Origin: Anaerolineae bacterium
GTDB taxonomy: Bacteria > Chloroflexota > Anaerolineae > 4572-78
Direction: 5' to 3'
NCBI GenBank assembly: GCA_965199695.1
Contig: OZ241372.1
Coordinates: 3,729,782 to 3,793,781 of the forward strand
DNA: 64,000 bases
Shown: piece after piece, positions 5,665 through 45,900 of the stretch
How positions within the stretch are numbered: the stretch's first letter is position 1
Layout of the letters: each line of letters starts with the position of its first letter
Translations under genes and position numbers: made by a program
Notes under the pieces: model-generated
The model's input: the letters and a program-made list of their open reading frames with translations, nothing else
Told to the model about the DNA's origin: nothing
The model's database searches: none

Positions 5665-6588
5665 CTACAACTGAGACCCAATAAAATCCTGCGCTCCATT
5701 GATGAAGTCACGGGTCGCCATTGTACGCTTATTTGGCGGTTGAATTTGGTCCAGCCTAACCGCCCCATCAGCCGTTGCTACTGCGACATCATTCTCTAGC
5801 TTGAAAATGCTGCCAGGTGGTAAATCAATTGACTCGTTCAAATATGGCCTGACCGAAATAATTTTTAGCGGCTTATTGTGCCAAATGGTAAATGCACTAG
5901 GCCAAGGATGATAGGCCCGAACATGGCGTTCCACAGCTATGGTGCTTTGTTTCCAATTGATTAGACCATCATGCTTATGCAGTTTGGGTGCTAAGGTGGC
6001 TAAAGTCTCATCTTGAACTTGAGTTTCAAGTTCTCGAGCAAACCAATAAGGCAAGGTGTCTATGATTAACGCTGAACCTAAGGCGGCTAATTCATCTGTT
6101 AGACTGCCGCCTGTATGTTCGAGCGTAATTGGCACGGCTCGGCGGCTCACAATCGGTCCAGTATCAAGACCACGATCCATGTGCATAATGGTGACACCTG
6201 TCTCAATATCGCCTGCCCGAATCGCTGCGGTCACAGGCGAAGCCCCTCGCCAACGCGGGAGAAGTGAGGCATGAATATTCAGACAGCCATATTCTGGGAG
6301 ATTGAGGACCTTATTTCGCAAAATATGACCAAAGGCAGCCACAATGATCACATCAGGGGCTAAGGCTTTCAGAGCAGCCTGAATGTCCCCCATTTTATGA
6401 GGCTGGAGAACAGGTATCCTAACAGACTCAGCAAATTGTTTCACTGGCGGCGGCATAAATTTACGACCCCGCCCCCTGCGTCGGTCTGGCTGCGTGACCA
6501 CAGTGCTGATGGTATATGTTTGATGTAGTTTTTTTAAGGCAGGCACGGCAAAATCTGGGGTGCCCATGAAGATGAGGCGTTTTGACAT
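5665..6588 (-). CDS. fmt: methionyl-tRNA formyltransferase
   Basis: N-terminus MSKRLIFMGTPDFAVP and the formyltransferase core NIHASLLPRWRGASP. Confidence 0.9.
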   Translation of the reverse strand: MSKRLIFMGTPDFAVPALKKLHQTYTISTVVTQPDRRRGRGRKFMPPPVKQFAESVRIPVLQPHKMGDIQAALKALAPDVIIVAAFGHILRNKVLNLPEYGCLNIHASLLPRWRGASPVTAAIRAGDIETGVTIMHMDRGLDTGPIVSRRAVPITLEHTGGSLTDELAALGSALIIDTLPYWFARELETQVQDETLATLAPKLHKHDGLINWKQSTIAVERHVRAYHPWPSAFTIWHNKPLKIISVRPYLNESIDLPPGSIFKLENDVAVATADGAVRLDQIQPPNKRTMATRDFINGAQDFIGSQL

Positions 6589-6930
6589 GGCGTTGCTCTT
6601 TGTTTTGGATGGACTTTCAAAAAGATATAATAGTATACCCCAAAAGCATAAGAAGTGCTACCCCACTGACAATCGCCAAAATATAGCCAGATAATCTCAC
6701 AGACCCTACACATCTAAAAGCATCCTAACCTGATAATCAGAATATAAAGGCTGAATTTGCCATTTTTAAGCAGTGGTGATACATTTCGTGTTTATCAAGC
6801 CTTTCAAATTTAGGAATGAATGAAATTCGCTTTTGATGATATTTGAGGCAAATTGGTTAATAATCTTGCCTGAATGATTGAATAATGAATAGTTGATTTA
6901 TTATTCTACAAATTCATAGGATGGAAAATA

Positions 6931-8367
6931 ATGATGACTGAAAACCAAGAAGCTTTACCCAAGATTTGGTACGATGAACATAATGAGACGATTTATATCG
7001 GGGACGAAAAGGTTGATGACTTGTCGAAGATGCAACAGACGATTTTACAATTCTTGATCCAAAATCCCTTGGTCAGACATGATCAATATGTCTTGATGAA
7101 TTTGGTCTGGCCTGATCCGCATACCCATAAAGAAAGTACGCCCAACGCTTTGCAAGCCCATATTTTTCAAATTCGGAAACGGATTGAACCAGACCCCGCC
7201 CCCAAACATGCCCGTTATCTGATTACTTGGTATGGTAGCCCCGGCGGCTACCAATTTTTCCCTGAAGGCAGGCCCGAAGTCCCAGCCTTAACGGTGTCCC
7301 CAACCTTTGAGGGCCTTCCAGAAAAAGTGTGGATTGAAGAACAAACACAGAATTTGTATCAAGGTGAGACCTTGCTGCAAGGGCTTTCAGATAGACAATT
7401 TACGCTTTTACGCTATTTTGTGGAGAACCCCTATGTTAAACATACTAGAGAGAAGCTCATTGAGGTCGGTTGGACGGATAAGGAACAGCAAAAGGGGGTG
7501 AATATTAATGCTTTACAGGCCCATATTGTGTATATTCGGAAACGAATTGAGCCTGACTTTTCTCATCCCCGCTTTTTAGTCACTTGGCATGGACGTGCAA
7601 CGACGGGCTACCAATTTTGGCCAGAAGGCATTGCTAAATTGCCGCGTCAAGGGCTAACAGGTCAAGACATCCCCGCTGAAAATATTTTATGGTACGATGA
7701 GGTTACGCAAAATTTATATCAAGGCCAATCTTTAATTCAAGGGCTATCTGAACGACAATCTTTGCTTTTGCGCCATTTGATTCAAAATCCCTATATCGAG
7801 CATAGCCGTCATATATTAATGAAGGAAGCTTGGTCAGAGATAGAACGCAATGAAGGGGTGACTCCCAATGCGCTCCAAGTTCATATTTATCAAATTCGGA
7901 AACATATTGAACCGAACTTAGAGATACCGCGCTATTTATTGACCTGGAAAGGGAAGCCCGGCGGTTATTACTGTGTGCCAGAGGGTCAAAAGCAGCATGC
8001 AGCAGCCTCGGCGAATGGTCATCGAGAACGACAGGGCGAAATTTGGTTTGACGAAGCCTCGCAAGGCATTTTTCAGGGTCAGACTTTGATTGAATCTTTA
8101 TCCAAAAAGGGCTACGCTTTGTTGAAGTTTTTAATTGAAAATCCACGGGAAAAGCTCCCCCAAGCTGCTCTCATTGAATACCTGGAGGCGGATAAGAAAC
8201 CAAAAGATATAGCAGTTAAAGCCCTTTATCGTCATGTAGAGCAGGTACGCAAGCAGATTGAGCCTGACTTGAGACGACCAAAGTATCTACTCACCTGGCA
8301 TAGCCGACCCGGCGGCTATCAATTTTTTCCAGATGGCAACCCGGATGAAGAAGCCCAAAGTGCCTGA
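6931..8367 (+). CDS. protein composed of four tandem OmpR/PhoB-type winged-helix DNA-binding domains, no receiver
   Basis: Four units of about 100 aa (aa 11-113, 132-233, 252-352, 370-469), each ending ...NALQAHI(F/V)QIRKRIEPD...RYL(I/L)TW.G.PGGYQF(F/W)PEG. This matches the trans_reg_C pattern (LRKKIE...TVRGvGY). Confidence 0.7.
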   Translation: MMTENQEALPKIWYDEHNETIYIGDEKVDDLSKMQQTILQFLIQNPLVRHDQYVLMNLVWPDPHTHKESTPNALQAHIFQIRKRIEPDPAPKHARYLITWYGSPGGYQFFPEGRPEVPALTVSPTFEGLPEKVWIEEQTQNLYQGETLLQGLSDRQFTLLRYFVENPYVKHTREKLIEVGWTDKEQQKGVNINALQAHIVYIRKRIEPDFSHPRFLVTWHGRATTGYQFWPEGIAKLPRQGLTGQDIPAENILWYDEVTQNLYQGQSLIQGLSERQSLLLRHLIQNPYIEHSRHILMKEAWSEIERNEGVTPNALQVHIYQIRKHIEPNLEIPRYLLTWKGKPGGYYCVPEGQKQHAAASANGHRERQGEIWFDEASQGIFQGQTLIESLSKKGYALLKFLIENPREKLPQAALIEYLEADKKPKDIAVKALYRHVEQVRKQIEPDLRRPKYLLTWHSRPGGYQFFPDGNPDEEAQSA

Positions 8368-8370
8368 GCG

Positions 8371-8574
8371 ATGCCTGAGAAATCTATTCAACTCGACCAA
8401 TTTTTAAAGTTAAATGATATTGTCTCGACAGGCGGACAGGCAAAATTACTTATTCAGCGTGGTGAAGTGAAACTGAATGGAGTCATTGAGACAAGACGCA
8501 AAAAAAAATTATATGACGGTGATATCATTGAGCTATTCGAACAATCTTGGGTGGTGGAATTTGTCGAATATTAG
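8371..8574 (+). CDS. S4-domain RNA-binding protein (YbcJ-like)
   Basis: LDQFLKLNDIVSTGGQAKLLIQRGEVKLNGVIETRRKKKL matches the YbcJ/S4 pattern. Start lies 4 nt after the preceding stop. Confidence 0.7.
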   Translation: MPEKSIQLDQFLKLNDIVSTGGQAKLLIQRGEVKLNGVIETRRKKKLYDGDIIELFEQSWVVEFVEY

Positions 8575-8583
8575 TGTCTATGC

Positions 8584-9819
8584 CTAAGGCGGTGTCCGCC
8601 CGTCAATCAGAATAAAACTGACCGCTTGGTTTTGAACCGTAACTGGATAATCAAAATTAATGCCGTCAAATGATGTTTTGATCACATAATTACCCGCTGG
8701 TACGTCGGCGAAGGTAAAGGTTTCGCCAAGTTGAGGGTCGGGCGTATAACGATGGTCTGGATAGGTGCGAGTTTGTCGCCAAAAACGGTTTGGGGAGGCG
8801 GCTTGATGGAGGGTGAGCAGTTGTTGAGGCACATAAAATCCATCTTTATCGACGACCCGTCCAGCAATCACCCCATAGCCATAATCAGGTCGGATCCAGA
8901 GATCAGGGTTTTGGGTACCTAAATAATCCAAGGCATTGTTCAAACGTATCTCTAAGTGAAGATGCGGTCCCAAGGCGACGCCTCCTTGTCCAGTGAGCGC
9001 AATCATTTGACCTGCTGAAACAATATCGCCTTCTTGAACCAAGGTTTGCGACACATGACCATAAAGCGTGTAGACGGGAAAGTTTTCTCCATTAGACAGC
9101 GTTAGACCCTCATGTTGTAAGATCACGGCTTGACCGTAAAAATTGTTATATAAACCGACAACTTGACCCAAATCATTGGCAGCAAAAACGACCAGACCAT
9201 CGCCCACAGCTAAGACGGGTGTATTTTGTGGATTTTGAATATCAATCCCGCGATGCCACAAATAAAGGCCATTATTATTTGTGCCATAAGGATATTGCCA
9301 ACTGCCCCAAGTTCGGTTGGGGTGATTATAAGGACGATTGAACCAAAAATGCGGTTCGCTTTGGGTATAATCTGGCGCATTATCAGCCCGCACTGTGCGT
9401 GGTAGGGGCGTAGCTGTTGGGGTGTGGGCTGGTGTGGGGAGTTTAACGTTGGCAAAGACTGCTGCTTTGGATAGGTCAATGTTGAGCAGTGGGGTAGGGG
9501 TTGATGTTCGGGTTGGCGTAGGTGGGATGGGGGTGTTTGTGGCTGTGTCAACCGGCGTAGAGGTCGATGTTTCAGTGGGCGTATCAGTCGGTAAAGGCGT
9601 ATAGGTAGGAGGCAGGGTCATCGTTGGCGACGGGGATGTTGTCGCCGTGGGTGTGGCTAATTCTATGACGGAGACTGCCTCTTGGTTAGATGCTTCTGGC
9701 GAGGCAGGTCCAAATATCGCTTGAAGACAACTGGCTAAACTAAGTCCTATCAGTAGATAAAGGAAAATCCATTGCTGTTTCCGACCTGTTATCGTTTGTT
9801 TTAATTTAGAATGAAACAA
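8584..9819 (-). CDS. M23 family metallopeptidase with N-terminal signal/anchor and Pro/Thr-rich linker
   Basis: M23 motifs HRGIDI and LYGH...GPHLHLE, with N-terminal hydrophobic segment and PTPT linker. TTG start. Confidence 0.85.
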   Translation of the reverse strand: MFHSKLKQTITGRKQQWIFLYLLIGLSLASCLQAIFGPASPEASNQEAVSVIELATPTATTSPSPTMTLPPTYTPLPTDTPTETSTSTPVDTATNTPIPPTPTRTSTPTPLLNIDLSKAAVFANVKLPTPAHTPTATPLPRTVRADNAPDYTQSEPHFWFNRPYNHPNRTWGSWQYPYGTNNNGLYLWHRGIDIQNPQNTPVLAVGDGLVVFAANDLGQVVGLYNNFYGQAVILQHEGLTLSNGENFPVYTLYGHVSQTLVQEGDIVSAGQMIALTGQGGVALGPHLHLEIRLNNALDYLGTQNPDLWIRPDYGYGVIAGRVVDKDGFYVPQQLLTLHQAASPNRFWRQTRTYPDHRYTPDPQLGETFTFADVPAGNYVIKTSFDGINFDYPVTVQNQAVSFILIDGRTPP

Positions 9820-9975
9820 TATATTACCTTATATTTAAGGGGTCTATTTCATGAGAGTCAGCCGTTTGCTAGTGAACTTAGAATAAACGCTTGAGTCCAG
9901 AATAAACCTTGGGATTTGGAATTTATTCTGGCATCTCTAGACTCGTTTGAAGTATATCCCTATTTGAGCATAAAA

Positions 9976-12281
9976 TTAAGGAGTCCAAACAATACGTTCC
10001 TCCAACCAGCCAAAGGAATGCTCTACATCAATCTGAGCAATCCCATCTATCGAGCCATTAAGCGAGAAGAGTTTTCTTTGCTGTTCCCCTGAGGGAGTCA
10101 TGGCCCATACGCCCCACTCACCATCTCGGTCAGCCACGAACACAAGGGTATTGCCATCTGGGGACCAAGCGGGTAGACCATCGTTGGGAACCTCAGTTGT
10201 CAGGCGCGTCAAATTTTGACCCGTCAGATCAATTTTATAAATTTCCCAATTGCCATCTCGGTCTGACATAAAAGCAAGGGTGTTGCCATCAGGGGAGACA
10301 GCAGGTGCGTTATCATTGGCCTGGGGCGTGAGTTGTTGAGGCCCACTGCCATCAAGATTGGTGATGATTAAACCACAATTATTGCTTAAGCAACCGCGAT
10401 AAACGATGCGTCCATCGGGTGTGACAGCAGGCTTTTCGCCTTGGACAGGGATTCCATCGCGGCGAATGATTTCATGGTCTGCGCCATCAGTACGATAAAC
10501 ACCTGGCGTTTCACCACCCTGACGAGAATGGAAGACAAAGAACTGTTCATCAGGTGAAAAGACAGGGCTGGCTGCTTCAAAGAATTTTACAAAGTGCCAG
10601 GCATTTGTTTCGTTGATTGCCCGCGTCATCAAGCCTCGTTGACTGGCCTGCCAAGAGCGATAAACAATGCGTTGTCCATCTTGGCTCATATCAGGTTGGC
10701 TGGCATCGGCCACAAGCAACTCTTGGTCAGTCCCATCTAAATTCGCTCGGAAGATGTCATAGGTGCCACGGGTTAGGTCATAAACCGGAAAAATGAGCTT
10801 GCCAGTCAGTGCTTGTTGACCCCGCCCTCGAAATTGGTCATGTGAGACAAAATCAGGTAAAGGCTCGACCTCACTTAAGGGTGAGCCTACTTCGTTCGTT
10901 GCGTGAGCGACAGGTTCATCTTGAGGCTCCTCACCTGTATCTGCGGTTTCAGCTGACACCTGAGTATCATTCGCTGAGGCAGATACGGTTTCTTCCTCGG
11001 ACTCAGGTAATGCTGTCGGTGTTATTTCTGGTGAGACCGCTTGGCTGGGGGTGTCGGTGGTTTGGGGATCGGATATTTCAGCTTGACGTTCAGTGCGGGT
11101 AGCGGATAGGGCTGTCGCTGTGGGAATAAAGACCACCTCTTCTTCTACTGGGGCATATAAACGAAGATTATCGAAACTGACCCAGATATTCGGGTCATCA
11201 AAACTGCTGGCGAAAAAGCCGAAGTTACCTGATTGGAAGCTATCGTCAGTCACCTGAGCTAATTTTTGTTCATTGGCGAACACGGCAATTTGTGGCCCAA
11301 AGGCATGGACAGCCAAGTGATTAGGATCTTCACCTTTGTTAATCCTGCCTGAACCTGTCCAATCGACTAAAATATGCCATTGACCCTGTTGTAATTTCGC
11401 CAAATGAAAAAAGCCATCGCTGCTGACATCAAAGCGATAATAATTATTGGTGTCAACAAAGCGGAAGATAATGCCGTAAGTATTATTGTTCCCCCCTTGA
11501 CGTTTAATGGTTTCCACTTCAATCTTGAAGTCGGCTGTATGTCGATTAGCCAAACCCCAAACAACCAAGTTATTTGTGTTGATATCGATATTATATTGAT
11601 GATTGCCATAGCGTTTGGTATAATAAGGGCCAGAGGCATCATCCCACCCACTATTCGAGTCACTGAAATCATCTTTATATTTTAGGGGTAAATCCAATGT
11701 ATTGTCTGTATGACCAGTTTCAATGAGGTCGGATTGCAAGGTGGCCTCTTCACTTTTGGTCAGAGCATTATTTCTCACCCACAGGACCAACGCGACAAAT
11801 GCGAGGATTAAAATAACGATCAAGCCACCAGCAATATAGACTAAACGCCCTATATACTCTGGCTTGGGATTGGGCTGAGAAGGGGATTGAGCCTGGTCTG
11901 GGGCAGGGGAAGAGACTTGTTGAGGTTTGTCAATGTGTTCGGCTAAGGGATCTTGAAAAACCAAGATACTTTCGCCAACTTGAAGGCTATCTCCTTGTGA
12001 GATGGGTTGTAGGGTCCCCAAAGGCATATTATTGAGTAACGTGCCATTGGCACTGCCTAAATCGGCTAAAAGCCATTCGCCATTTTCATAGCTGATTTGA
12101 CAATGATAGCGCGAGACACGAGGGTCGACCAGCACCACATCATTATCAATCTCACGGCCAATACGAGTCTTGAATTTTAAGCGGAATGTTTTGCCGACCG
12201 ACTCGCCCTGAATCATTTCTAACTTGGGCACAACTGATGGGCCAACAATCGTTGAGTCTGCTTTTTGTGCTTGATCCATAA
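9976..12281 (-). CDS. FHA domain protein with TM segment and C-terminal TolB-like (PD40) beta-propeller
   Basis: N-terminal FHA (GKTFRL...GREIDNDVVLVDPRVSRYHCQI...GSANGTLLNN), a TM helix near aa 160-185, an acidic PT-rich region and C-terminal PD40 repeats (SPDGNTLAFMSDRDGNWEIY...). ATG at 12281 is preferred over the track's TTG at 12327. Confidence 0.75.
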
Positions 12282-12401
12282 AAACTTCCCTAAAAAGAGT
12301 CGCCGAATTATAGCAGAGGGAGCGCAAGTCAGCCAGTCAGCGGGGCAGCGTTACATTGTCTTTAATTTTCCTAACTTCCAAAATGACTTCATCACCCTCT
12401 G

Positions 12402-17612: not shown

Positions 17613-19244
17613 CTAAGAGGTCGCCACAAAGATGGTTTCCACACGCACCCCTGTCTTTTCATCCACCGTCAACACCTCATACTTCTCTCGATTAGCCTCA
17701 TCAATCGCTTCTACAAAGAAAACAAGGGAGATTTGGCACAAGTTGAGTTGTTTGCCATAACAGGCGGCTTGGGTAATCGCTTTTTTGTAGCTGGTTTGAT
17801 TGGCATAACTTTTCACTTCCAGCCCATATCTTTGGCCAGAATAATGAATAATTAAGTCGATCTTACCATTGCCTGTTGGAAATTCAGGATAGACTTGACC
17901 GTCTTGGTGCTGTAGAAAATAGAAGAGGTACATGTAAAGATTGAAATGATAGACTGCTTCATAAATGCGTAAATCGGTGGTCCGGCGTGGAACATTTTTG
18001 AATAACCAGTCTCGATTTCGCTGGAGATACCGTTCATATAAGCGTAACATTTGTTTTATGTTTATATCTGTCTCAGTAACGATGTCACTCAAATCCTCAA
18101 AAGGGGGATGTAATTGACCGACGTATTGAAATAATTCTGAGGAGAAATAATTAAATAAACGTTTTTGAACAAAGGGGCAGGAAAATTTGAGATTCTGCTC
18201 TGCTTCATCAACCACATCTTGTTCAACAACCCCGTTCATATACAAAAAGTTCGTCTGAGGGTCATCGTAGCGGAAGGTGATTTTCTCTTGGGTTTGGAAC
18301 ATTTCTAAAATAAGCTGTCGATAAGGCTCTTGTTTCGCTTTACTGATGATGTTCACGATGTTCGCATTGGGCAGGGCGTTTACCGCTGCTGAATAAGCAA
18401 TCTCAAAATCACGGTTAGTAATAGTGGCTTGGTGTTTGTTATACGTTTCGGTCAAGAGTTCTCCTAGCCAAGAGACAAACCCTGGCTGCCCCTGTGTCTC
18501 ATAATATACATGCTCAATGACCGCCTCTTCGACCTGCTGTCCGCTCTCCCGCTCATACCATTGATACATTTCTTCAACCTCCGCAAAGGTGAGATTAGGA
18601 ATATGCAAACTTCGTTGTACATTAAAAGGCGAGCCGCTTTTGTTCTCAATACCCAACCCACTGCGTACCCCGACCAAGGCAACACCATGCAAAAGATACG
18701 TTTCTTCATCAAGGGTCTGGTACTGCCGACTAACATAGATATTTCTGAAGACATCGACAATCCCACTAATGGCCTCCTCTGCTAAGGCATCAAATTCATC
18801 TAAGATCAGAATCAAAGGTTTTTGCAAATGCCCTTTCTTAAAAATATGATGAAACTGGTCTAAGGAGCCATGTACCGCCAGGTGGGCTAAGGTAGAATGG
18901 CCATCGTCAGCCAGAAAGTTCGTTTGGACATCTGCCAAGCCAAGCCTTTGCACAATCTCGCTAGCGATGGACTGCACGATTTTATTCACATCAGGCTGAC
19001 TGCGTAGATGTTGCAAACTTAAGGCCATCGTATCAAAATGATCCTCCCGGCGTAAGCGATGCAAAGTTTGTTGCATGACCCAAGTTTTCCCCCGCTGTCG
19101 AGGAGCCCAAACGGTGATGAAATGTCCTCCCTCATCAGGATTTTCACCGAGTAATTGGACACAAGCTTGCCTGATCAGGGATTCACGAGGAACGTAGTAA
19201 TGGGAACCAGTACTGACAGGCCCATAAGATGAAAATTTACGCAT
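17613..19244 (-). CDS. ATPase_2 (Arch_ATPase-type P-loop) protein with C-terminal DUF234 / PD-(D/E)xK-like domain
   Basis: P-loop APRQRGKTWV, Walker B ILILDEFD, and C-terminal GKIDLII...GLEVKS consistent with a D..E.K nuclease-fold motif. Confidence 0.65.
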   Translation of the reverse strand: MRKFSSYGPVSTGSHYYVPRESLIRQACVQLLGENPDEGGHFITVWAPRQRGKTWVMQQTLHRLRREDHFDTMALSLQHLRSQPDVNKIVQSIASEIVQRLGLADVQTNFLADDGHSTLAHLAVHGSLDQFHHIFKKGHLQKPLILILDEFDALAEEAISGIVDVFRNIYVSRQYQTLDEETYLLHGVALVGVRSGLGIENKSGSPFNVQRSLHIPNLTFAEVEEMYQWYERESGQQVEEAVIEHVYYETQGQPGFVSWLGELLTETYNKHQATITNRDFEIAYSAAVNALPNANIVNIISKAKQEPYRQLILEMFQTQEKITFRYDDPQTNFLYMNGVVEQDVVDEAEQNLKFSCPFVQKRLFNYFSSELFQYVGQLHPPFEDLSDIVTETDINIKQMLRLYERYLQRNRDWLFKNVPRRTTDLRIYEAVYHFNLYMYLFYFLQHQDGQVYPEFPTGNGKIDLIIHYSGQRYGLEVKSYANQTSYKKAITQAACYGKQLNLCQISLVFFVEAIDEANREKYEVLTVDEKTGVRVETIFVATS

Positions 19245-19672: not shown

Positions 19673-21157
19673 ATGTTCACTAAACAAACTTCTCAATTAA
19701 ACCAAGCCCTCACCCTCACTTTTACCCTCCTCCTCCTCATCCTCTGGTTCTGGCTCTATTGGCCAGTCTTCAATTACCTGAACCTCATCTTTTCCCAAGA
19801 AGATTTTCGGACCAATCAGCTACTCCTGATTGGGGTGGGGGGTCTTTTGGTGTGGCAAATTCAGCAGGGATATTTTCGCTGGCTGGGTGATATCAGACCA
19901 CAATGGTATCCTGTAGCCCTGAGCATGGCTTTAGGCGGCTCAGTATTATATCTAATCGTCGAACGCTATCTGGCAATTAACACCCTCTCAGCCAGCTTGT
20001 TTGCTCTAGCCAGCTATGGCTTGTTGGGGCTATGGATGCAGCCCCAAGCTTGGCGACAAGGTTTACCCGCCGCGCTCTTGCTGGTCGGCACTCTGCCCTT
20101 TGGCGATCACATGCAGACCTTCATTGGCTACCCCCTGCGAATTTTCACTGCCACGCTCATCCGCGATGGCTTAGAAGCGGCAGGTGTGGCTGCGCTCGGG
20201 GTTGATACGATTTTAATTTTTGAAAATGGGGTCTCTCAGGTAGATATGCCTTGTAGTGGAGTCAAAAGCTTATGGACAGGTATGCTCTTTCTACTCGCGG
20301 CGACATGGCTTGAACGGCGACCGATTAACCTTACTTGGGGAGGCATCGCTATTCTATTTGCGGGGCTGCTCTTTCTGGTCAATATCATGCGAGTTGGACT
20401 CTTAATCATTCTTGGCCCGGTGGCTGGGTGGCCTGTATTATCGGAGATGATGCATGTTCCTTTGGGCGTGTTGGGATTTGGGGGAGCTTGTGCTGGGGCC
20501 TTGGGGTTGTTGCGCTGGCGGCGTTCAGGGGATGAGGGTGAATTGATCCAGAAATCAACCCATCCCGCTTGGCTCGCTCCCATCCTCGCCCTCATCATCT
20601 TTACCTTTGCCTTAATCTACACGCCTCGTCCACATCCTGGCCTCACCCAGGCTCCGCCAATCTGGCACTTCCCGCCCCGGCTCACCATCAACCCCATGCC
20701 CCTCAAACCCGACGAGCGAGCCTGGCTCACCCGCGACGGAGCCGAATCAGCCACCCGCTTTCGCTTTGCTTGGCGAGACTTGACAGGCTCCCTGATCCTG
20801 ATCATCAGCAACACTTGGCGTGGGCATCATCGACCTGAACGGTGCTTTGAAGTTTATGGCCTCAACCTCAACGATTCACGGGCCTATCTCGTTCGCCCTG
20901 ATTTTCCCTTGCGCTTTGTATCTCTGGCTGGCCAAGATGGCCCCACCCTTTCCGCCAGCTATTGGTTCCAATCGGCCACCCAGACCACCGACGACTACGC
21001 TACCCGCATCTGGGCCGATCTGCCCCCGCATCGCCAACGCTGGATACTGGTCTCGATCTTGTTTGATGATGCCTACGCCCCTCAGGCGGATAATGTGCAA
21101 GCATTTTATGAAATGTTACATGAAGTTGTTCAGCAGATGGTGGCGCGGGGAACGTAA
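19673..21157 (+). CDS. exosortase family transpeptidase fused to a C-terminal EpsI-like domain
   Basis: Eight or so TM helices. Exosortase motifs VDMPCSGVKSLW (Cys), NIMRVGLL (Arg) and HVPLGVLGF (His). The C-terminal ~200 aa carry WRGHHRPERCFEVYG, resembling EpsI (exosortase-associated, H.PE.C..G.GW). Confidence 0.8.
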   Translation: MFTKQTSQLNQALTLTFTLLLLILWFWLYWPVFNYLNLIFSQEDFRTNQLLLIGVGGLLVWQIQQGYFRWLGDIRPQWYPVALSMALGGSVLYLIVERYLAINTLSASLFALASYGLLGLWMQPQAWRQGLPAALLLVGTLPFGDHMQTFIGYPLRIFTATLIRDGLEAAGVAALGVDTILIFENGVSQVDMPCSGVKSLWTGMLFLLAATWLERRPINLTWGGIAILFAGLLFLVNIMRVGLLIILGPVAGWPVLSEMMHVPLGVLGFGGACAGALGLLRWRRSGDEGELIQKSTHPAWLAPILALIIFTFALIYTPRPHPGLTQAPPIWHFPPRLTINPMPLKPDERAWLTRDGAESATRFRFAWRDLTGSLILIISNTWRGHHRPERCFEVYGLNLNDSRAYLVRPDFPLRFVSLAGQDGPTLSASYWFQSATQTTDDYATRIWADLPPHRQRWILVSILFDDAYAPQADNVQAFYEMLHEVVQQMVARGT

Positions 21158-21214
21158 TGTCTGGTTCGTGTTTCATCGTTGTTACCGTCTATAGTTAAGG
21201 AGATATATAACCTC

Positions 21215-24199
21215 ATGAAAAAAATGTTTATGACCCTTGTCCGCAAATTTTTTAGCCATCAAGGCTGGGCTTACTTCTTGTTTTGGGCTTGGAACCTCAT
21301 CTTCCTCGCTTTTATGTTTTTGGGCTTTGCCCCGCTGGTATTGCTAACCTTGCTTGAGGCGGTACAAGCAGGCGAACTACCGCCTAATTTTTTAGTCTAC
21401 GCCGCGCTCTTAACTGCCATCCCTGCGATCACGATTCTGCTGGGGTTCTTTCGTTTACGTCGAGAACCAAGCCATTTATTTGCGCTGGGTTATGGAGTCG
21501 AAGGCCCATTGATGCTTCTCATCGCCCTTCGCCTTTTTGCCGTCCGTGCGCTGACAGCAGCGGTAGCCTTTTTGTTTATTATTGCAGGCTTGGGCATCAT
21601 GACCTATCTCTGGAATTTGCTTGACCGTCAGATTGACCGCCGGGGTTTGCTACTGACCTATCTGCGAAGCATTGGCCTCACCCTGAATTTCTTAATTGGT
21701 TTATACGCGAGCCTATGGATTGCCTTTTACGCCTTTCCTTTGGGGATGATGGGCATCAATTTCTTTATGAACGAATTCTTGGTCAATTTAGGTCAAATTT
21801 TAGATAATCTCTGGTCAGCTTTGCTCGCCTTTGATTGGGCTGAGGTATTCACAATTTCTGGGCGTGATCTTCTCCTCTTACCTTTCTTCATTCTTTGGCC
21901 GATCTTGATAATGTTCTCCGCCACCTTGTTTGTCTTCATGCCGATTGCCATTGCCATCCTCTACACCCGGTCTTGGTGGGATGGACTGAGCAATTTGATT
22001 CGTCGCTATGGTTGGTCTCAGGCGCTGCCCTTAACAAGCTTCGTGATGGCCGTTTGCATTATCTTTTTCATTGATACCAATCGCCAACCGCAGCATCATG
22101 CTTTTGCCCTGCTCGAAAATCCGCCTAACTCGCCTGCTGAAGCGCAAGCCCTGCTTGAGCAACAAAAGGCCATTCGAGAAGGTCTGCTCAATTCGTATCT
22201 AGCCCCCTTACGCTACTTCAGCGCGGTCGGCGAAGTCTATCATGTGCGTGAAATGTATGAACGGAGTCTGGGTCTAAGGCCCCAACAAGCGGCTGAAATT
22301 CAACGCCTCTATGATACCCTGGCCCGACCCGTTCTTTATGAACCCATTGAACCCGTTGCATACGTTAATTCATTAGACAGAAATCGTTGGGATAATCGAG
22401 CCTTCAACGAAGACTCCCTGCAAGCCGCTGAACGCTATGAAACCTTTTTCGATCAAGATATTCTCGACGGTGAGCGCGAGGCGATTGTGCAAGCTGCCCT
22501 GTCTACCTGGTCAATTGATCAAGCGAGGCAAGCGAGGCAAGCGGTTGATGACCGCGAGGTCTATTTACGACAACAGGAAATTAACATCAAAGAACATGGT
22601 GATTGGGCTGAGGTTGAGTTATATGAGGCATATCAAAATAAAACGACCCAAGGTCAGGAGGTGGTTTACTATTTCAGTCTGCCCGAATCCGCCGTCATCA
22701 CCGGTGTATGGCTGGGCAATAGTCCCAATCGAGAGAAGCAGTTCGTTTATCGTATCGCGCCGCGAGGGGCCGCGCAAGCTGCCTATCGCAACGAAGTACG
22801 CCGTCAGGTAGACCCGGCCTTAGTCGAACAAATTGGGCCGCGTCAATATCGCCTGCGCGTCTTTCCGATTGAACCGCGAAATTTTTCTTGGGACCCTGAA
22901 GCAGACCACTATACCTTGCAAGAAGGGCCGTCCCTACATCTATGGCTGACGTGGCAGGTCTTGGCTCATAATCAAGCTTGGCCCATGCCCCAGTTGGCTG
23001 AACATCTCAATGTCTATTGGGACGATGACAGCATCCGTCTGGTGAATGGTCAAGCCATGCAAATAGATGAAGAAACATGGCTCCCCGAAGCTGTGCCTGC
23101 AATCTCACCTGTGACTCCAGTCACCCATCGCCTCCAGTTTCCGAGTGATGAAATCGTGATCATTCAGCCCCTCGCCACAGAAGACCAACCAGAACCACCC
23201 TCAGCTATCCGTCTCGCCCTCGTCTTAGACCGTTCTCGTAGCATGATTGATCAGGCTGAGGCGGTCAAAACTGCCTTGATGAGGCTCTCCCGTCTAACCG
23301 AGGCAGCGATTGATGTTTATCTGACCGCCTCACAATATCGAGGGGAAGAGCCGAGCCTTGTTTCGTTAAGCGATATCGACCCCGACCAAATCCTCTATTA
23401 CGGGGGGCAAAACGCGGTTGAATTATTGAGCCAATTCAACGCCCTGCACACAGATCAAGTGTATGAGGCTATTTTTGTCCTGACTGATGGCACAGGCTAT
23501 AAATTGGGCGAAGGGGATATCGACCTGCCCCCTTCTAACATACCAATTTGGATGATCCATCTAGGCGGAGATTTCCCCTTGGGCTACGATGACCCAACTT
23601 TAGAAGTCATTCAAGCCAGCGGTGGTGGCGTGGTCGGCGATGTGGAAACCGCCCTGACTCGCCTAGCCATTAGCCTGAACAGAGATCTGGCATCATTTAC
23701 CAATTTGCCGCTCACCTTGGCCGACGATGTGGCGGCAGACATCATTGATGGCTATCTCTGGCTAACGTTACCTGCCACTCAAGCTGAGGCGGTCACTGAA
23801 CTTGACCCGCCGACAGAAGCCCCGCTTGATGTCTTTGCCGCTTTCGCTGCTCGCCGTCTCATCTTGGCGGAGATGGCGCGTCAGCGGGGAAACTTAACCG
23901 ACTTAGCCATCCTCGACCACCTGCATGCGCTCGCCATCAAGTATAGCCTTGTTACGCCCTACTCCGCCATGATCGTCTTAATTAATGAAAGACAGCAAAA
24001 AATGTTGGACGAACTGGAAAAACGAGCTGATCGCTTTGACCGCGAGTATGAAGAAATCGGCGAAACAGAAGCCGAAAACCCCTTCACAGTGACAGGTGTA
24101 CCAGAACCCGAAGAATGGTTGTTGCTGGGTTTGGTCATGATAATGTTGGGGGGGTATATTTATACGAGGCGACAGCAGAAGCAGTCAAATGCAACATAG
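21215..24199 (+). CDS. PEP-CTERM protein with polytopic N-terminal membrane domain, VIT-like and vWA domains
   Basis: C-terminus VTGVPEPEEW-LLLGLVMIMLGGYIY-TRRQQK (PEP + TM + basic tail) at nt 24098-24196. vWA MIDAS LVLDRSRSM and FVLTDGTGY. VIT-like segment VVYYFSLPESAVITGVWL. About 8 TM helices in the first 290 aa. AAGGAGA precedes ATG 21215. Confidence 0.75.
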   Translation: MKKMFMTLVRKFFSHQGWAYFLFWAWNLIFLAFMFLGFAPLVLLTLLEAVQAGELPPNFLVYAALLTAIPAITILLGFFRLRREPSHLFALGYGVEGPLMLLIALRLFAVRALTAAVAFLFIIAGLGIMTYLWNLLDRQIDRRGLLLTYLRSIGLTLNFLIGLYASLWIAFYAFPLGMMGINFFMNEFLVNLGQILDNLWSALLAFDWAEVFTISGRDLLLLPFFILWPILIMFSATLFVFMPIAIAILYTRSWWDGLSNLIRRYGWSQALPLTSFVMAVCIIFFIDTNRQPQHHAFALLENPPNSPAEAQALLEQQKAIREGLLNSYLAPLRYFSAVGEVYHVREMYERSLGLRPQQAAEIQRLYDTLARPVLYEPIEPVAYVNSLDRNRWDNRAFNEDSLQAAERYETFFDQDILDGEREAIVQAALSTWSIDQARQARQAVDDREVYLRQQEINIKEHGDWAEVELYEAYQNKTTQGQEVVYYFSLPESAVITGVWLGNSPNREKQFVYRIAPRGAAQAAYRNEVRRQVDPALVEQIGPRQYRLRVFPIEPRNFSWDPEADHYTLQEGPSLHLWLTWQVLAHNQAWPMPQLAEHLNVYWDDDSIRLVNGQAMQIDEETWLPEAVPAISPVTPVTHRLQFPSDEIVIIQPLATEDQPEPPSAIRLALVLDRSRSMIDQAEAVKTALMRLSRLTEAAIDVYLTASQYRGEEPSLVSLSDIDPDQILYYGGQNAVELLSQFNALHTDQVYEAIFVLTDGTGYKLGEGDIDLPPSNIPIWMIHLGGDFPLGYDDPTLEVIQASGGGVVGDVETALTRLAISLNRDLASFTNLPLTLADDVAADIIDGYLWLTLPATQAEAVTELDPPTEAPLDVFAAFAARRLILAEMARQRGNLTDLAILDHLHALAIKYSLVTPYSAMIVLINERQQKMLDELEKRADRFDREYEEIGETEAENPFTVTGVPEPEEWLLLGLVMIMLGGYIYTRRQQKQSNAT

Positions 24200-39982: not shown

Positions 39983-42900
39983 ATGATAAGTAAGCGTTCG
40001 ATTTTATACGTTGTGTTAACGATGTTCCTCGTCTTGGGATTACAACCTCCTGTATCCACGGGAGCCCAAACATCATCTGATGAAGAGGATGAACCTCCCT
40101 TTGTACCTGGGCAGTTGATTATCGGTTTTCGCGCTGGGGTAACAGGGGAAGAGATTGCTACATTTTATGAAGACTATAATTTTACCGAAGCATCAGATTT
40201 GGATGGCAATCCGAATGATACTGATGAAGAAGAGAAATTGGCTTATGTGCCTGCACAAGTGACGCAAGATTTTATTGCCTCAGTTGAGCGTGATCCGCGG
40301 GTTGAATTTGCCGAGCCTAACTATTTGCTGTCAGTAGATTTTGGGCCAAATGAGTTTATGTGGCCTCAGGCTCTGACCCCAGATGACCCGCAGTTCGATG
40401 AAATGTGGGGTTTAAATAACACGGGGCAAACAGGCGGCACCGATGATGCTGATATAGACGCGCCGGAAGCCTGGGAGATAACCACAGGGTCAACTGAGAT
40501 TTTGGTTGGGGTGATTGATACAGGGGTGGACTATGACCATGAGGACTTAGCCGCCAATATGTGGGTTAATCCTGATGAAATTCCGGATAATGGCATAGAT
40601 GATGATGATAATGGCTATGTCGATGATATACATGGGATTAATGCCATTAATGACAGTGGGGATCCGATGGATGACTTCGGGCATGGCACACACGTCGCTG
40701 GGACGATTGGCGCCAAGGGGGGCAATGGCCTCGGCGTGATTGGGGTGAATTGGGATATTCGAATTATCGCTTGTAAGTTTCTTGGGGCTAGCGGTGGGGG
40801 GAATAGTGCAAATGCGGTCAAGTGTTTTAAGTATTTTAATCAATTAAAAGCCAAGGGATATAAGGTCCTTATTACGAATAATAGTTGGGGTGGGGGTGGT
40901 TTTTCCCAAGCCTTGAAAGAGGCGATGGCAGCGACAGACCAGCCAGACAATACACCAATTTTGCATGTTTGTGCGGCTGGGAATGCTGGAAATGATAATG
41001 ACTCTATACCAGCCTATCCGGGCAGTTATGATTTGGACAATATTCTCGCTGTGGCCGCCACGGATCATCATGATCTCTATGCCAGCTTTTCCAGCTATGG
41101 CGCAGTGGCTGTCGATTTGGCTGCCCCTGGGGTAGAGATTCTTTCGACTGTCCCGACAGGCAATTGTGCGCTTTGTGATCCGACTGGTTATGAATTTGTC
41201 AACGGAACGTCTATGTCCACGCCCCATGTGGCTGGCACAGCGGCCTTGATTTGGGCGCAATATCCTGATTCAACCTATCTCCAAGTGATTCAACGCCTGT
41301 TGTCGGGGGTTGATCCTTTAGATGATACGAGTAAGGCCACTGTGACGAATGGTCGCTTGAATGCGTTTAATGCTTTGGAGGATGATTCAAGCCCGCCAGC
41401 AGCGGTGAATGACTTGGCTATAGACAATGCTGGTTTGGCTTCTATCACCCTCAGGTGGCAGGCGACAGGCGATGATGGCCTAGAGGGGACGGCCAATGGC
41501 TATGATATTCGTTATTCAGATGTTGGGCCCTTTGATTGGGAGACAGCGACCAAAGTGAGCGATGAGCCTAAGCCCCAAGCGGCTGGGGAGACAGAAACTT
41601 TTGCCGTTTCAGGTTTAGATCCTAGTACAACCTATCATTTTGCGATTAGAGTGCTGGATAACGTAGGCAATGCCTCTGAACTATCAAACATCGTGACAGG
41701 CAACACCAAGGCGGGGTCGCCAATTTTTGAGGATGATGTGGAAAGCGGAGAAGGGGAGTGGACCATAGCTGATGATGATGCCCTGTGGCACATCTCTGAA
41801 CATCGCGCCAATAGCCCCCAGAATGCTTGGTATTATGGGATTGAAGGAACTTGGAATTATGATACTGGCGGCCCTAATTCTGGAACGCTGACATCCCCGC
41901 CAATTGACCTAAGTGACACACCCGAAGCCTTGTTAACCTTCTATGAGTGGAGCGAAGTCGAAACGAACAACAGCTATGACCGGACGCGGGTTCAAATTTC
42001 ACTGGATGGCAAAAACTGGGAGACAATCTTTGAATCTCATGGCACCAATGATACCTGGATAAAACGAGTGATTGACCTCACATCGTATGTGGATGAAGAG
42101 ATTCAACTGCGCTTCTGGTTTGATACCATCGACGGCCTGTTTAATACCTTCGAGGGGTGGTATATTGATGATGTGACGGTGTTTGGGCTCTCTAAAGAAC
42201 CGCCTCCAGCCCAGTCGAATTTGCTGATCCCTGAAAGTAATGTGGGACTAAATCCAGCCGACCCCCAAGCTGGGGACGAGATTGTGATTCGAGCCACGAT
42301 TTTGAACAACGGCACGAGCATCGCGAGTGATGTTACTGTCATGTTCTTTGATCTTTCTCAAGATGAGGGAAAGGCCCCGAAGCCCATTGGCCAGCCTCAG
42401 ATCATTGAGCGGATTGCGCCTGGTGGTAGTGGTCAGGCTAAGATTACTTATAGCCCTGACCCAGCAGAAATGAGTTTACATCAACCTAGCCAGCGGGCTA
42501 TTCAAGTCGTGGTTGATCCGAATAATACCATTGTTGAGGGGAATGAGACGGATAATGAAACAACGAAGAATTTCCAGATCGCCCCAGCACCTAGTCCGAA
42601 TTTGGTTATCTTAGAAAGTAACATAGGCCTTAGCCGAGCTGAACCTGTTTCCGGCGAAGAAATTTTCATCAAGGCGACCGTATTGAATCAAGGCACAGCC
42701 GGTGCTAGTGAGGTCGCGGTTCTGTTTATCGATGTCACGGATGGGACTTCAATACCGATTGGCCCCCAACAGATTATAGAGACGGTCCCGGCTGGAGGAA
42801 GTGGCCTGGTGCAGGTACGCTATGATACTTCAGGCAAGGTCGGGGAACGACAAATTCAGGTCTTGGTCGACCCGAATAATATCATTCAGGAAACGCCTGA

Positions 42901-45900
42901 ATCTGATCCGAATGGGGCCAATGATAATCAAGCCCAGAAAACCTTAACCATTCACGCCACCGCTTTGTCCAACTTGGTGGCGCGATCTGACAATATCGGC
43001 TTTGATCAGCCCTCGCCCAATTGGGGGGATGAGGTAACGATCAGCGCAGTGATTGGCAATGATGGTCAGGCTGAGGCGAACCAGGTGATGGTATTATTTG
43101 TCGATGCTACAGATAGCAGCGGTTCTACAGAAACTGCGCCTGTGCCTATTGGCCTCCCCCAAATAATTAAAACCATTGCTGCTGGTAGTAGCCAGCGTGT
43201 TCAAGTAGGCTATAGACTGCCCGAACAAAGCGGGGTGAGCGGTCATTCGCCTTCGCTAGAACGCGAGATTCTGGTTGTTATTGATCCTTATAATGTCATC
43301 CCTGAAACAACGGAAAGTGATAATGAAGCCCAAGCGACACTTTCAGTGACACCGCCCCCAGCCCCGAACTTGGTGGTGCAAGCTGAGACAATTGGGATTC
43401 ATCCCGCTACCCCAAGCGTTGGCCAGGCGGTCACGCTTCGGGCGATCATCTTCAATAAGGGGACGGCTGAAGCCAAGCCTGGGGCAGCAGATGAGATCTT
43501 GGTCTTGTTTGTGGATGCCACAGGCGGCGAGTTGATCCCCATTGGCCCGCCACAGACCTTGCCCAGTCTGGCTCCTGGTACAAGTACGGTCATCGAAATA
43601 GCCTATGATGCGCCGGGGAAAGTAGGCGAGCGGCTTATTCAAGTGATCCTTGATCCAGATAATGTTTTGCTTGAAAGCGATGAAAGCGATAATGAAGCCA
43701 AACGTACTTTGACCGTAACCGCCCTACCCAAACCAAATTTGGTTGTCACTGCGGATAATATTGGCTTTGATCCGCCTGAGCCAATGAATGGTGAATCGGT
43801 CACGATACATGCTGCTATTTTGAACACAGGTAACGCAGAGGCTCAGGCAGTTCTGATTAAGTTCGTTGATATAACAGGCGGTGGAGCACGTTTGATTGGT
43901 GAACCGCAAACAATAGACGTAATCCCAGCCGGGTCGAGTGACCGTGTTGAGATTTCTTATTTAGCTAGGAGTCGTGGTGAGCGTGAGATTGCGGTAGAGG
44001 TTGATCCAAATAATACGATTGTTGAGCGTGCAGAAGATGACAACAAAGCTAGTCAAGTTTTATCTATTCGATCTCTCGCAGGCCCTAACCTATCCCTTCT
44101 GGACAGTAATATTGGCATTGACCCGGCCGAGCCAGCAGATGGCGAAACGATAACGATTAGGGCCGTGGTCCTCAACACAGGCGGTCGCCGGGTGTCTAAT
44201 GTAACAGTCTCGGTGATTGATGTGACCGAAGGAGGGATTGTGCCGATTGGGGGGCCTCAAACCATCTCTTCCATTGCGCCAGGCGGCAGCGGAAGCATTC
44301 AGATACCTTATAACCCCTTTGGGCGACTTGGAACGTTGCGCTTGCCTGGCCAAGTTGTCAGTCAGGCGCGTGAGCGGCAGATTCAGGTGGTGGTTGATCC
44401 GAATAATACCATTTCTGAGACCGATGAAATGGATAATATGGCGACCAGAGGGGTGACCATAGCCTCGCCGCCTGTGCCGAATTTACTTGTCCCCGTCGAT
44501 AACATTAGTGTTACTCCCAGTCAACCGCGTATGGGTGAAGATGTGACTCTGAGAGCTGTTATCCTCAACGATGGTGATGCTGAAGCAAGCGATATCAGCG
44601 TGATGTTTGTTGATATCACAGATAATGGCTTTGTACCAATTGACTCCTTGCAAACGATTTCTAACTTGGAGCCAGGTGGTAGCAAGGCTGTCCAAGTTCG
44701 CTATGAGACACGCCATAGAGGCCCGTCTAATGAGGCCGATGGCCCTGTCGGCAGCAGCGTTTCCACAAGTGAACGTCAAATTCGGGTCATCGTTGATCCC
44801 AATAATACGGTCCCCGAAGCAAGAGAGAGTGATAATGAGGCAGTGAAGACCTTTGTCATCACCCCACTCCCTAAACCGAATTTGGTGATGTTTGCTAGCA
44901 ATATCGGCTTGAATGTGGCCGAGGTGAAAACAGGGACACCCCTTACGGTCACAGCCACAATTATTAATGATGGCGGAGCTCCCGCGAGTGGGGTCAGGGT
45001 GTTGTTTGCTGATGTGACTGGGGGCACTGCTAAACCTCTTGACGATTTACAGGTGATCTCTGAAATTCCGCCGGGTGGCAGTGGTGTGGCCCAATTGGTG
45101 TATAATACGCTGGGACGTTCGGGGGAACGGATTTTGCACATCATGATTGATCCGAATAATACCATTCCTGAGGCGGTTGAGGATGATAATCAAGCAGAGA
45201 AAAGCTTCACCATTAGCCCCCCGCCTAGGGCAAACTTAGTCATTCTAGAAAATAATATTGGTCTTCATCCGCAGGAGCCGCTAGTCGGTCAAACCGTGAC
45301 GCTACATGCGACCATCCTTAATGATGGAGATGCTTCAGTGAAAGATGTGGCGGTTCGCTTTGTTGATGTGACTGATGGAGCGAATCAGAACGGTAGTTTG
45401 GGAGCCATACCGATTGGTGAGGTACAGATGATTGCCAGTATTCCGCCAGGGAGCAGCGGATCGGTGCAAGTCAATTATGATACCAGTGCTAAGGTCGGTC
45501 AACGTCAGATTGAGGTGATTGTTGATCCTCATAACCTGATTGGGGAGGCGAAGGAATCTGATAATACGCAGATAAAGACATTTATGGTAGCCGCCTTAGC
45601 CAAGCCCAATCTGGTGATTCAAGCGGATAGCATTAGTCTGAACCCGCTTCAGCCTCAGGCAGGTGATGTGGTCTTGCTAAACGCAGTGGTGATGAATAAG
45701 GGGACTGCGCCAGCACGAGAGGTGATGGTTAAGTTTGTCGATGTCACAGACGGGGGTTCAATCCCCGTGGGTACACTGCAAATTTTATCGGCTCCAGATG
45801 GCGATACGGTTATTATGCCTGGTAGCAGCGGCACAGTTGAGGTGATGTACGATACACATAAGCAGGTCGGGGGCGGTGCTTTTGAAACCGAACGTGAGAT

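Follow-up and report, generated by a model that had tools for sequence, protein, structure and literature searches.

Two adjoining genes in the window, which is the whole 64-kb stretch of DNA analysed here, are, judged by their sequences, a typical copy of a catalogued pair that consists of exosortase O (XrtO) and a single large membrane-protein target. The pair very probably forms a 'dedicated' exosortase cassette made up of two genes, of the XrtO/TIGR02921 type, in a Chloroflexota genome, where the exosortase would cleave the protein that is encoded next to it. This pairing is already known, is curated as TIGR04489 and TIGR02921, and is found mostly in Chloroflexota.

Identity of the gene pair

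Both ORFs are intact on the + strand and are separated by a gap of 57 nt. Each protein matches its model from end to end, with a score above the curated cutoff. The order of the genes, the tail motif, and the order of the domains are as in the XrtO/TIGR02921 relatives at 74 related loci, and no difference of substance was identified. The nearest relatives share 66% identity with XrtO and 59-60% with the TIGR02921 target, which is slightly longer than its relatives (994 aa compared to 942-987 aa). Relatives are already called 'exosortase O' (the name that NCBI and JGI give to XrtO relatives) and 'TIGR02921 family PEP-CTERM protein' by public pipelines. The pair is of little value as a discovery: curated models that already exist assign both names automatically, and public databases contain the identical proteins. 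Experimental work on XrtO and TIGR02921 was not found in the literature, and literature searches for exosortase O, TIGR04489, XrtN, XrtK, and MSEP-CTERM yielded nothing but unrelated papers.

The exosortase and its C-terminal domain

The features of the exosortase gene are as follows.

19673..21157, + strand: xrtO, exosortase O, 494 aa (TIGR04489, 345.4 bits, cutoff 250)
19739..20518, + strand: polytopic exosortase core, aa 23-282 (Pfam PF09721, Exosortase_EpsH, 89.2 bits)
20252..20254, + strand: codon of Cys194, presumed catalytic nucleophile, in the invariant P-C-S-G-x-K-S motif (C194-S195-G196)
20390-20392, + strand: codon of R240, invariant in the 24-sequence alignment
20453-20455, + strand: codon of H261, invariant in the 24-sequence alignment
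20558..20629, + strand: extra TM helix that joins the core to the C-terminal domain, aa 296-319 (hydropathy)
20630..21154, + strand: C-terminal soluble domain, EpsI-like, aa 320-494, predicted extracytoplasmic
20828-20845, + strand: H-R-P-E-R-C, aa 386-391, invariant in 24 XrtO homologs

The sequence-only reading had called the upstream protein an exosortase, and its score against the subfamily HMM bears this out. The TIGR04489 alignment places aa 27-470 on profile positions 1-450 of 451, with the C-terminal domain included. The exosortase/archaeosortase signature TIGR04178 was also identified at aa 189-283 (35.3 bits, cutoff 23). The score for the XrtA model is only 44 bits (cutoff 208). The CSG motif, R240, and H261 are unchanged across all 24 XrtO homologs that were aligned (alignment A1). 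The catalytic role of Cys194 is presumed by analogy with the exosortase family (PMC1569441). A second exosortase was not found in the 64-kb window by tblastn.

The extra TM helix of XrtO, which corresponds to helix 12-27 of the domain model, is preceded by the basic loop RWRRSG. The topology of XrtO is self-consistent by the positive-inside rule. The soluble domain behind the helix had been read as a fused EpsI-like domain, and this reading stands only in part. The extra C-terminal domain exists, and the C-terminal 198 aa of XrtO alone score 125.8 bits on TIGR04489 profile positions 289-450. The copy in the window matches neither of the EpsI models (TIGR02914 and PF11984) at E<=10, but weak matches were identified among its homologs. 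PF11984 matches 11/15 XrtO homologs below the threshold (19-22 bits, cutoff 26.1, best E 1.3e-4), with one match spanning profile positions 7-198 of 203, and TIGR02914 matches 6/15 (best E 0.0012). These weak but consistent matches in two HMM libraries suggest that the domain may be remotely homologous to EpsI. A solved EpsI structure for comparison was not found, and neither was an exosortase or EpsI relative in the PDB by sequence.

The target protein and its sorting signal

The features of the target gene are as follows.

21197..21202, + strand: Shine-Dalgarno AAGGAG, 12 nt upstream of ATG 21215 (read from the sequence)
21215..24199, + strand: TIGR02921-family PEP-CTERM integral membrane protein, 994 aa (TIGR02921, 672.6 bits, cutoff 200)
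21266..22081, + strand: polytopic N-terminal domain in the membrane, aa 18-289, with about 7 TM helices and the N-terminus on the inside (hydropathy)
22082..22549, + strand: alpha-helical region between the membrane domain and VIT, aa 290-445 (AF2, pLDDT mostly 63-86)
22571..22879, + strand: VIT domain (Pfam PF08487, 41.2 bits, cutoff 26.5)
23192..23794, + strand: vWA domain, aa ~660-860 (fold)
23228-23242, + strand: MIDAS-type DxSxS, invariant D672-x-S674-x-S676; T757-D758 is also invariant
24098..24178, + strand: PEP-CTERM sorting signal, VPEPEEW, TM helix, and RRQQK (TIGR02595, 19.0-20.2 bits, cutoff 16)

The ORF opens at TTG 21179, but the true start is ATG 21215, where the deposited 994-aa protein (exact match P0122, NCBI/ENA) starts. 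The TIGR02921 alignment covers profile positions 9-921 of 922. The N-terminus is polytopic, as had been noted; the helix count of about 8 given earlier becomes 7, a number obtained by hydropathy heuristics and the positive-inside rule rather than a dedicated predictor. These hydrophobic helices are conserved in 32 aligned target homologs and are helical in the AF2 model, which has low confidence (mean pLDDT 63.6, VIT region <50). The basic loops (1-24, 80-94, and 251-269) and the acidic loop (174-222) give a self-consistent topology by the positive-inside rule. A polytopic PEP-CTERM protein had already been flagged as an exception in 2006 (PMC1569441).

The ectodomain of about 680 residues is acidic and consists of the helical region, VIT, and vWA. 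The helical region has no family match in the HMM search. The presence of VIT and vWA domains, proposed earlier, was corroborated by Pfam PF08487 for VIT and by the fold, not a sequence profile, for vWA. The VIT domain also aligns to the VIT parts of TIGR04477, TIGR04286, and TIGR03788. The vWA fold carries the MIDAS-type DxSxS motif; no vWA family in Pfam or NCBIfam matches the segment at E<=10, and no PDB sequence matches it using the family profile.

The C-terminal tail, which the sequence-only reading took for a PEP-CTERM signal, passes TIGR02595. The stretch from G961, G-V-P-E-P-x-E-W-L-L, is unchanged in 32 target homologs, and the family-specific motif [GA]VPEP[EHQ]E[WY] is carried by 62/62 complete locus homologs. 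A rival reading holds that the tail is never cleaved and serves as a permanent anchor, while XrtO, rather than being a protease, stays bound to the polytopic protein as its chaperone, scaffold, or regulator. Such an arrangement would suit a target that is membrane-anchored anyway and needs no release, and biochemical work on the pair was not found in the literature. However, XrtO shows no variation at the Cys, Arg, and His positions that characterise active exosortases, and the PEP motif does not vary at any residue. This is the pattern expected of an enzyme-substrate recognition site and not of a simple anchor, and we regard an uncleaved tail as highly improbable.

Conservation of the pair and its neighbourhood

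The related loci were found by a genome-collection search with alignment A1, while a single XrtO protein query returned none. Among the 80 related loci, 74 carry the pair and a contig end truncates five of the remaining six, which leaves 75 informative loci. The target gene is next to and 3' of xrtO on the same strand in 74 of these 75. The remaining locus (L047) has XrtO and no adjacent target. One target each was identified in the window and the 80 loci. The divergence of xrtO and the target is correlated (Mantel r = 0.85, a value reached by 0/999 permutations).

It might be argued that the tail merely resembles PEP-CTERM and that two functionally unrelated genes have come together by chance or misannotation, and the generic PEP-CTERM score is indeed just over its threshold (19-20 compared to 16 bits). 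This explanation is effectively refuted because both proteins score far above the cutoffs of their curated full-length models, synteny extends across 74 species-level genomes, the tail is invariant, and the two genes diverge in a correlated manner.

A different question is whether XrtO is a general exosortase for many scattered PEP-CTERM proteins, with its TIGR02921 neighbour as one substrate or an accessory. An exosortase usually serves many targets (PMC3237569), the tail scan covered 64 kb of the 6.11-Mb genome, and L047 carries XrtO on its own. However, the targets of multi-target systems usually lie apart from the enzyme (PMC3237569), whereas adjacency is nearly constant here and the tail motif is both invariant and family-specific. 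A relaxed six-frame regex scan identified no other PEP-CTERM-like tail in the window, in agreement with the earlier reading, and none was found in about 900 kb of the 80 related loci. A giant S8/CARDB protease in the window was considered as a second substrate and rejected, as its C-terminus has no sorting signal. A general exosortase is thus improbable. The one-enzyme/one-substrate arrangement proposed earlier fits the synteny, the family-specific tail, the correlated divergence, and the neighbourhood, where no conserved third gene (regulator or acceptor synthesis) was found. Polysaccharide genes flanking the pair were not found either. That there is a single substrate is what the synteny suggests.

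The GC content of the pair is 0.52 compared to 0.44-0.46 upstream, and the downstream genes have similar GC. Recent horizontal transfer of the pair has no support, given this downstream GC and the fact that all close relatives of the pair, like the host, belong to Chloroflexota. The host was assigned from a flanking M24 peptidase, whose best matches are to Chloroflexota at 86% and to Caldilineaceae at 72%. A strong negative AT skew fits the T-rich codons of membrane proteins. The scans for promoter-like sites (10 compared to 5.1 +/- 2.3 expected) and terminator-like sites (6 compared to 5.6 expected) were uninformative.

Comparison with other sorting systems

Dedicated sorting systems have been reported, with VIT/vWA proteins as recurring sorted targets (PMC3237569). 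The XrtN target (TIGR04477) and MSEP-CTERM (TIGR04286) are similar to the window target in that VIT lies far from the N-terminus (about profile positions 350-433 of 822 and 489-568 of 920, respectively) and a sorting signal comes after it at the C-terminus. An alignment to TIGR04477 (E 4.6e-6) was also obtained for the C-terminal region of the window target, and the C-terminal domain of XrtN (TIGR04476) weakly matches that of XrtO. However, the window target scores far below both cutoffs (38.6 compared to 250 for TIGR04477 and 30.6 compared to 150 for TIGR04286), and the MSEP-CTERM motif differs from its own. XrtN/TIGR04477 and MSEP-CTERM are sister systems and not members of the XrtO/TIGR02921 family.

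The marine proteobacterial sortase TIGR03784 and its target TIGR03788 also form a dedicated one-enzyme/one-target cassette (PMC3237569). The target likewise carries VIT, vWA, and a tripartite C-terminal signal (PMC3237569; the match here is weak). However, the enzyme is a sortase unrelated to exosortase, the signal is LPXTG, and VIT begins at profile position 4, which leaves no large polytopic N-terminal domain. XrtA/EpsH and cyanoexosortase B (CrtB) share the exosortase core and Cys-x-Gly motif with XrtO, and EpsI-type domains are fused or adjacent to the enzyme in XrtA/EpsH-EpsI and CrtB as in XrtO (PMC1569441). Unlike XrtO, both have many targets that are secreted with signal peptides, and both lie within exopolysaccharide loci.

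Proposed processing of the target

The PEP-CTERM helix of the target would span the membrane with its basic tail predicted to be cytoplasmic. The extra helix of XrtO would place the EpsI-like domain on the outer side of the membrane, the same side as the target ectodomain. XrtO would recognise GVPEPEEW at this outer face and cut there via its cysteine, and the cut would remove the C-terminal anchor of the target. The new C-terminus may pass to another envelope molecule, as proposed for other exosortases; in the current exosortase model PEP-CTERM is removed and covalent linkage is possible (PMC12188702). Processing cannot free the target from the cell because the N-terminal membrane domain stays, and it would instead free or re-attach one end of an ectodomain that is still anchored. 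The probable role of the vWA/VIT module is to bind a ligand or partner, and that of the EpsI-like domain is probably to help hold the substrate or acceptor.

PEP-CTERM systems have been described as Gram-negative (PMC3237569). Chloroflexota are usually regarded as having no classical outer membrane, which bears on where the processed end would go. A more speculative extension, to which we give a small chance, is that XrtO turns the doubly anchored target into a covalent bridge. Nothing would be secreted. The seven-helix N-terminal domain would remain in the cytoplasmic membrane while the freed C-terminus is joined by transpeptidation to a polymer of the outer Chloroflexota envelope, and the EpsI-like domain would present the acceptor. 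The result would be either a tether between membrane and envelope or a MIDAS adhesin activated by cleavage, in a phylum of this envelope type. If true, exosortases would here act in a way that has yet to be demonstrated.

The XrtO/TIGR02921 pair is a minimal study system that has two genes and one predicted substrate and lacks a surrounding polysaccharide locus. It would allow the cleavage site, the acceptor, and the EpsI-type domain to be studied without the redundancy of many substrates. As the substrate is unable to leave the membrane, the question of what its tail is exchanged for is unusually clean.

Assignment and layout of the gene pair

The first gene of the pair, xrtO, encodes exosortase O (XrtO) and the second encodes its putative target. 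XrtO scored 345.4 bits against the NCBIfam model TIGR04489 (curated cutoff 250) and covers profile positions 1-450 of 451. The same protein scored far under the respective cutoffs of the NCBIfam models of XrtT, XrtQ, XrtA, and XrtN. The exosortase recognised by the sequence-only reading therefore belongs to the XrtO subfamily. The target scored 672.6 bits against TIGR02921, "PEP-CTERM integral membrane protein" (cutoff 200), and covers profile positions 9-921 of 922. The pair is the XrtO/TIGR02921 system itself.

Features of the gene pair and its upstream neighbour
17613-19244, minus strand: AAA_35-domain gene (543 aa), divergent, just upstream of xrtO
19673-21157, plus strand: xrtO ORF, intact (494 aa)
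21179-24199, plus strand: target ORF, intact, with TTG at its opening, co-oriented with xrtO
21197-21202, plus strand: Shine-Dalgarno sequence AAGGAG of the target gene

The target deposited at NCBI/ENA consists of 994 aa starting from the ATG at 21215 and is an exact match to P0122. The spacing between xrtO and the target gene is 57 nt. Downstream of the pair are genes for a RidA-type protein and a luciferase-like oxidoreductase. Clustering of the ORFs from related loci did not reveal a conserved position beside xrtO for the AAA_35-domain gene in other genomes.

The GC content of the pair is 0.52 compared to about 0.45 upstream, and the AT skew is strongly negative (-0.258) at 20001-22000. 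The base composition of this segment is attributed to the T-rich hydrophobic codons of two membrane domains as the candidate cause. Transfer of the pair across phyla is not supported by its higher GC. The pair sits in its usual phylum, Chloroflexota, as judged from the best matches of the flanking M24 peptidase, a Chloroflexota MAG (86%) and Caldilineaceae (about 72%).

Residues and C-terminal domain of XrtO

The exosortase core was identified by Pfam at residues 23-282 of XrtO. A basic loop (RWRRSG...) and one additional hydrophobic helix (296-319) connect the core to a soluble domain roughly 175 residues long. C194 (within P-C-S-G-x-K-S), R240, and H261 are invariant in the alignment of 24 XrtO homologs, and so is the H386-R387-P388-E389-R390-C391 (HRPERC) motif of the C-terminal domain. 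The same alignment exhibits two other invariant cysteines beyond the presumed catalytic C194. C273 (20489-20491) lies within the final helix of the core, and C391 (20843-20845) belongs to the HRPERC motif.

The C-terminal domain had been described as EpsI-like. The copy in the window did not match any EpsI model, even at E<=10, but weak matches were identified among its homologs. PF11984, which we take to be the Pfam EpsI-family model, matches 11 of the 15 sequences scanned with E from 1.3e-4 to about 1e-3 (19-22 bits, under the cutoff of 26.1). One of these matches spans profile positions 7-198 of 203 and the rest centre on the HRPERC region. Two NCBIfam models also match weakly, namely TIGR02914, "exosortase C-terminal domain/associated protein EpsI" (6/15 homologs), and EpsI type V (4/15). 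The PDB sequence search returned no exosortase or EpsI structure. From these profile matches, the relationship of the domain to EpsI appears to be real but remote, and it does not place the domain inside the EpsI models. Some EpsH proteins have been reported to carry an EpsI-homologous region fused at the C-terminus (Haft et al., 2006; PMC1569441).

Domains and topology of the target protein

The tail of the target scored 19.0-20.2 bits against the generic PEP-CTERM model TIGR02595 (cutoff 16), which upholds the PEP-CTERM signal that had been read there. The tail sequence G-V-P-E-P-x-E-W-L-L is invariant across 32 target homologs. Of 64 target homologs longer than 800 aa collected from related loci, two are truncated at a contig end. 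Each of the 62 complete homologs carries [GA]VPEP[EHQ]E[WY], and after this motif come a hydrophobic helix and basic residues.

VIT and vWA domains had also been proposed. The VIT domain was detected by Pfam (41.2 bits, cutoff 26.5) and its region is poorly modelled (pLDDT < 50). The vWA domain was not detected by Pfam, NCBIfam, or PDB sequence search, but its D672-x-S674-x-S676 and T757-D758-G761 are invariant in the 32-homolog alignment. The vWA domain also exhibits an invariant G-G-Q-N at 23402-23413 (residues 730-733), with DxSxS and T-D intact. Many vWA domains have G-G-T there, bearing the MIDAS threonine. The G-G-Q-N may represent a variant metal site.

The topology was derived heuristically from hydropathy (target and 32-sequence alignment) and from K+R and D+E counts of the loops. 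The resulting model is N-in and self-consistent and has seven helices (about 18-53, 57-80, 88-110, 112-137, 153-177, 214-252, and 267-289). The N-terminal region is thus polytopic as had been claimed, with a count close to the proposed eight or so, but parity favours seven. The basic loops are 1-24, 80-94, and 251-269, and the acidic one is 174-222. On balance, the ectodomain (about 287-970) is acidic, and the PEP-CTERM helix leads back to a basic, predicted cytoplasmic tail. The target ectodomain and the EpsI-like domain of XrtO are predicted to be on the same side.

Conservation of the gene pair

The scan with the XrtO alignment (one genome per species) identified 148 genomes with a relative, from which 80 loci were kept. 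Almost all of them are from Chloroflexota (Anaerolineae, Caldilineaceae, Ardenticatenaceae, and Thermoflexales). The only locus not labelled Chloroflexota (L035) is from a MAG binned as Acidobacteriota, which reflects either mis-binning or rare transfer.

A target homolog is located downstream of xrtO on the same strand in 74 of the 80 loci, usually 3-300 nt away. Of the other six loci, five stop less than 250 nt from xrtO, so adjacency holds in 74 of the 75 informative loci, those with enough sequence downstream. The sole exception (L047) lacks the target despite 6 kb downstream of xrtO. Its XrtO (5890-7407) scored 359 bits against TIGR04489 and is flanked by a hybrid histidine kinase upstream and an AraC-type regulator downstream. 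Another locus (L013) has a 2.7-kb insertion (7468-10190) separating xrtO from the target. Neither of the two ORFs inside the insertion (480 and 317 aa) matched an NCBIfam model.

Clustering of all ORFs from the loci and the window identified no third conserved gene. The window contains no second exosortase. Other PEP-CTERM-like tails are absent from the window, as confirmed by a six-frame scan, and from the related loci. Together with the adjacency in 74 loci, this fits the reading of one enzyme with one substrate. "Dedicated" sorting systems have been defined by an enzyme and a single target side by side (PMC3237569; bioRxiv 10.1101/2023.06.07.544157). The pair matches this signature, with the target being single within the window and the related loci. 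The pairwise identities of XrtO and target across 62 loci are correlated (r = 0.85, reached by 0 of 999 permutations), which fits inheritance as a unit and alone is no proof of interaction.

Other genes in the window

Other features of the window
9976-12327, minus strand: protein with N-terminal FHA domain and C-terminal TolB-like beta-propeller (783 aa)
39983-47647, plus strand: ORF with S8 subtilase, fn3, and 13 CARDB repeats (2554 aa)
57677-60634, plus strand: protein with four cyclic-nucleotide-binding domains by Pfam (985 aa)

The 2554-aa protein resembles a giant protease that is secreted or exposed at the surface, and no sorting signal is recognisable at its C-terminus. The 985-aa protein exhibits partial similarity to acetyltransferase Pat and to the cNMP region of encapsulin-2B.

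Proposed mechanism and comparison with known systems

This work showed the architecture, the conservation of the catalytic-type residues, the invariance of the recognition motif, and the synteny of the pair, and it predicts the same-side topology. Going by the exosortase family, XrtO would cleave the target at the PEP motif via Cys194 and may pass the new C-terminus to another molecule (PMC1569441, PMC12188702). Through processing, the ectodomain would have its distal end either freed or re-attached elsewhere. Processing could not release the target, since the target retains its seven-helix membrane domain. The vWA/VIT module suggests metal-dependent partner binding.

The window proteins exhibit only weak partial matches to three sister systems. 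XrtN/TIGR04477 and MSEP-CTERM both have VIT-domain targets, and a marine proteobacterial sortase has an LPXTG VIT-vWA target. Public pipelines have already named relatives of the pair "exosortase O", "TIGR02921 family PEP-CTERM protein", or "putative PEP-CTERM system integral membrane protein". The polytopic PEP-CTERM family flagged in 2006 is presumably TIGR02921, going by the description of the model. The literature search returned no experimental study of XrtO or of its target.

The observation made in the sequence-only reading is confirmed and its interpretation is supported. The pair has no novelty at the level of kind because it is a curated family pair that can be annotated automatically. 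What value remains lies in using the XrtO/TIGR02921 pair as a minimal, clean system in which to study the biochemistry of exosortases.
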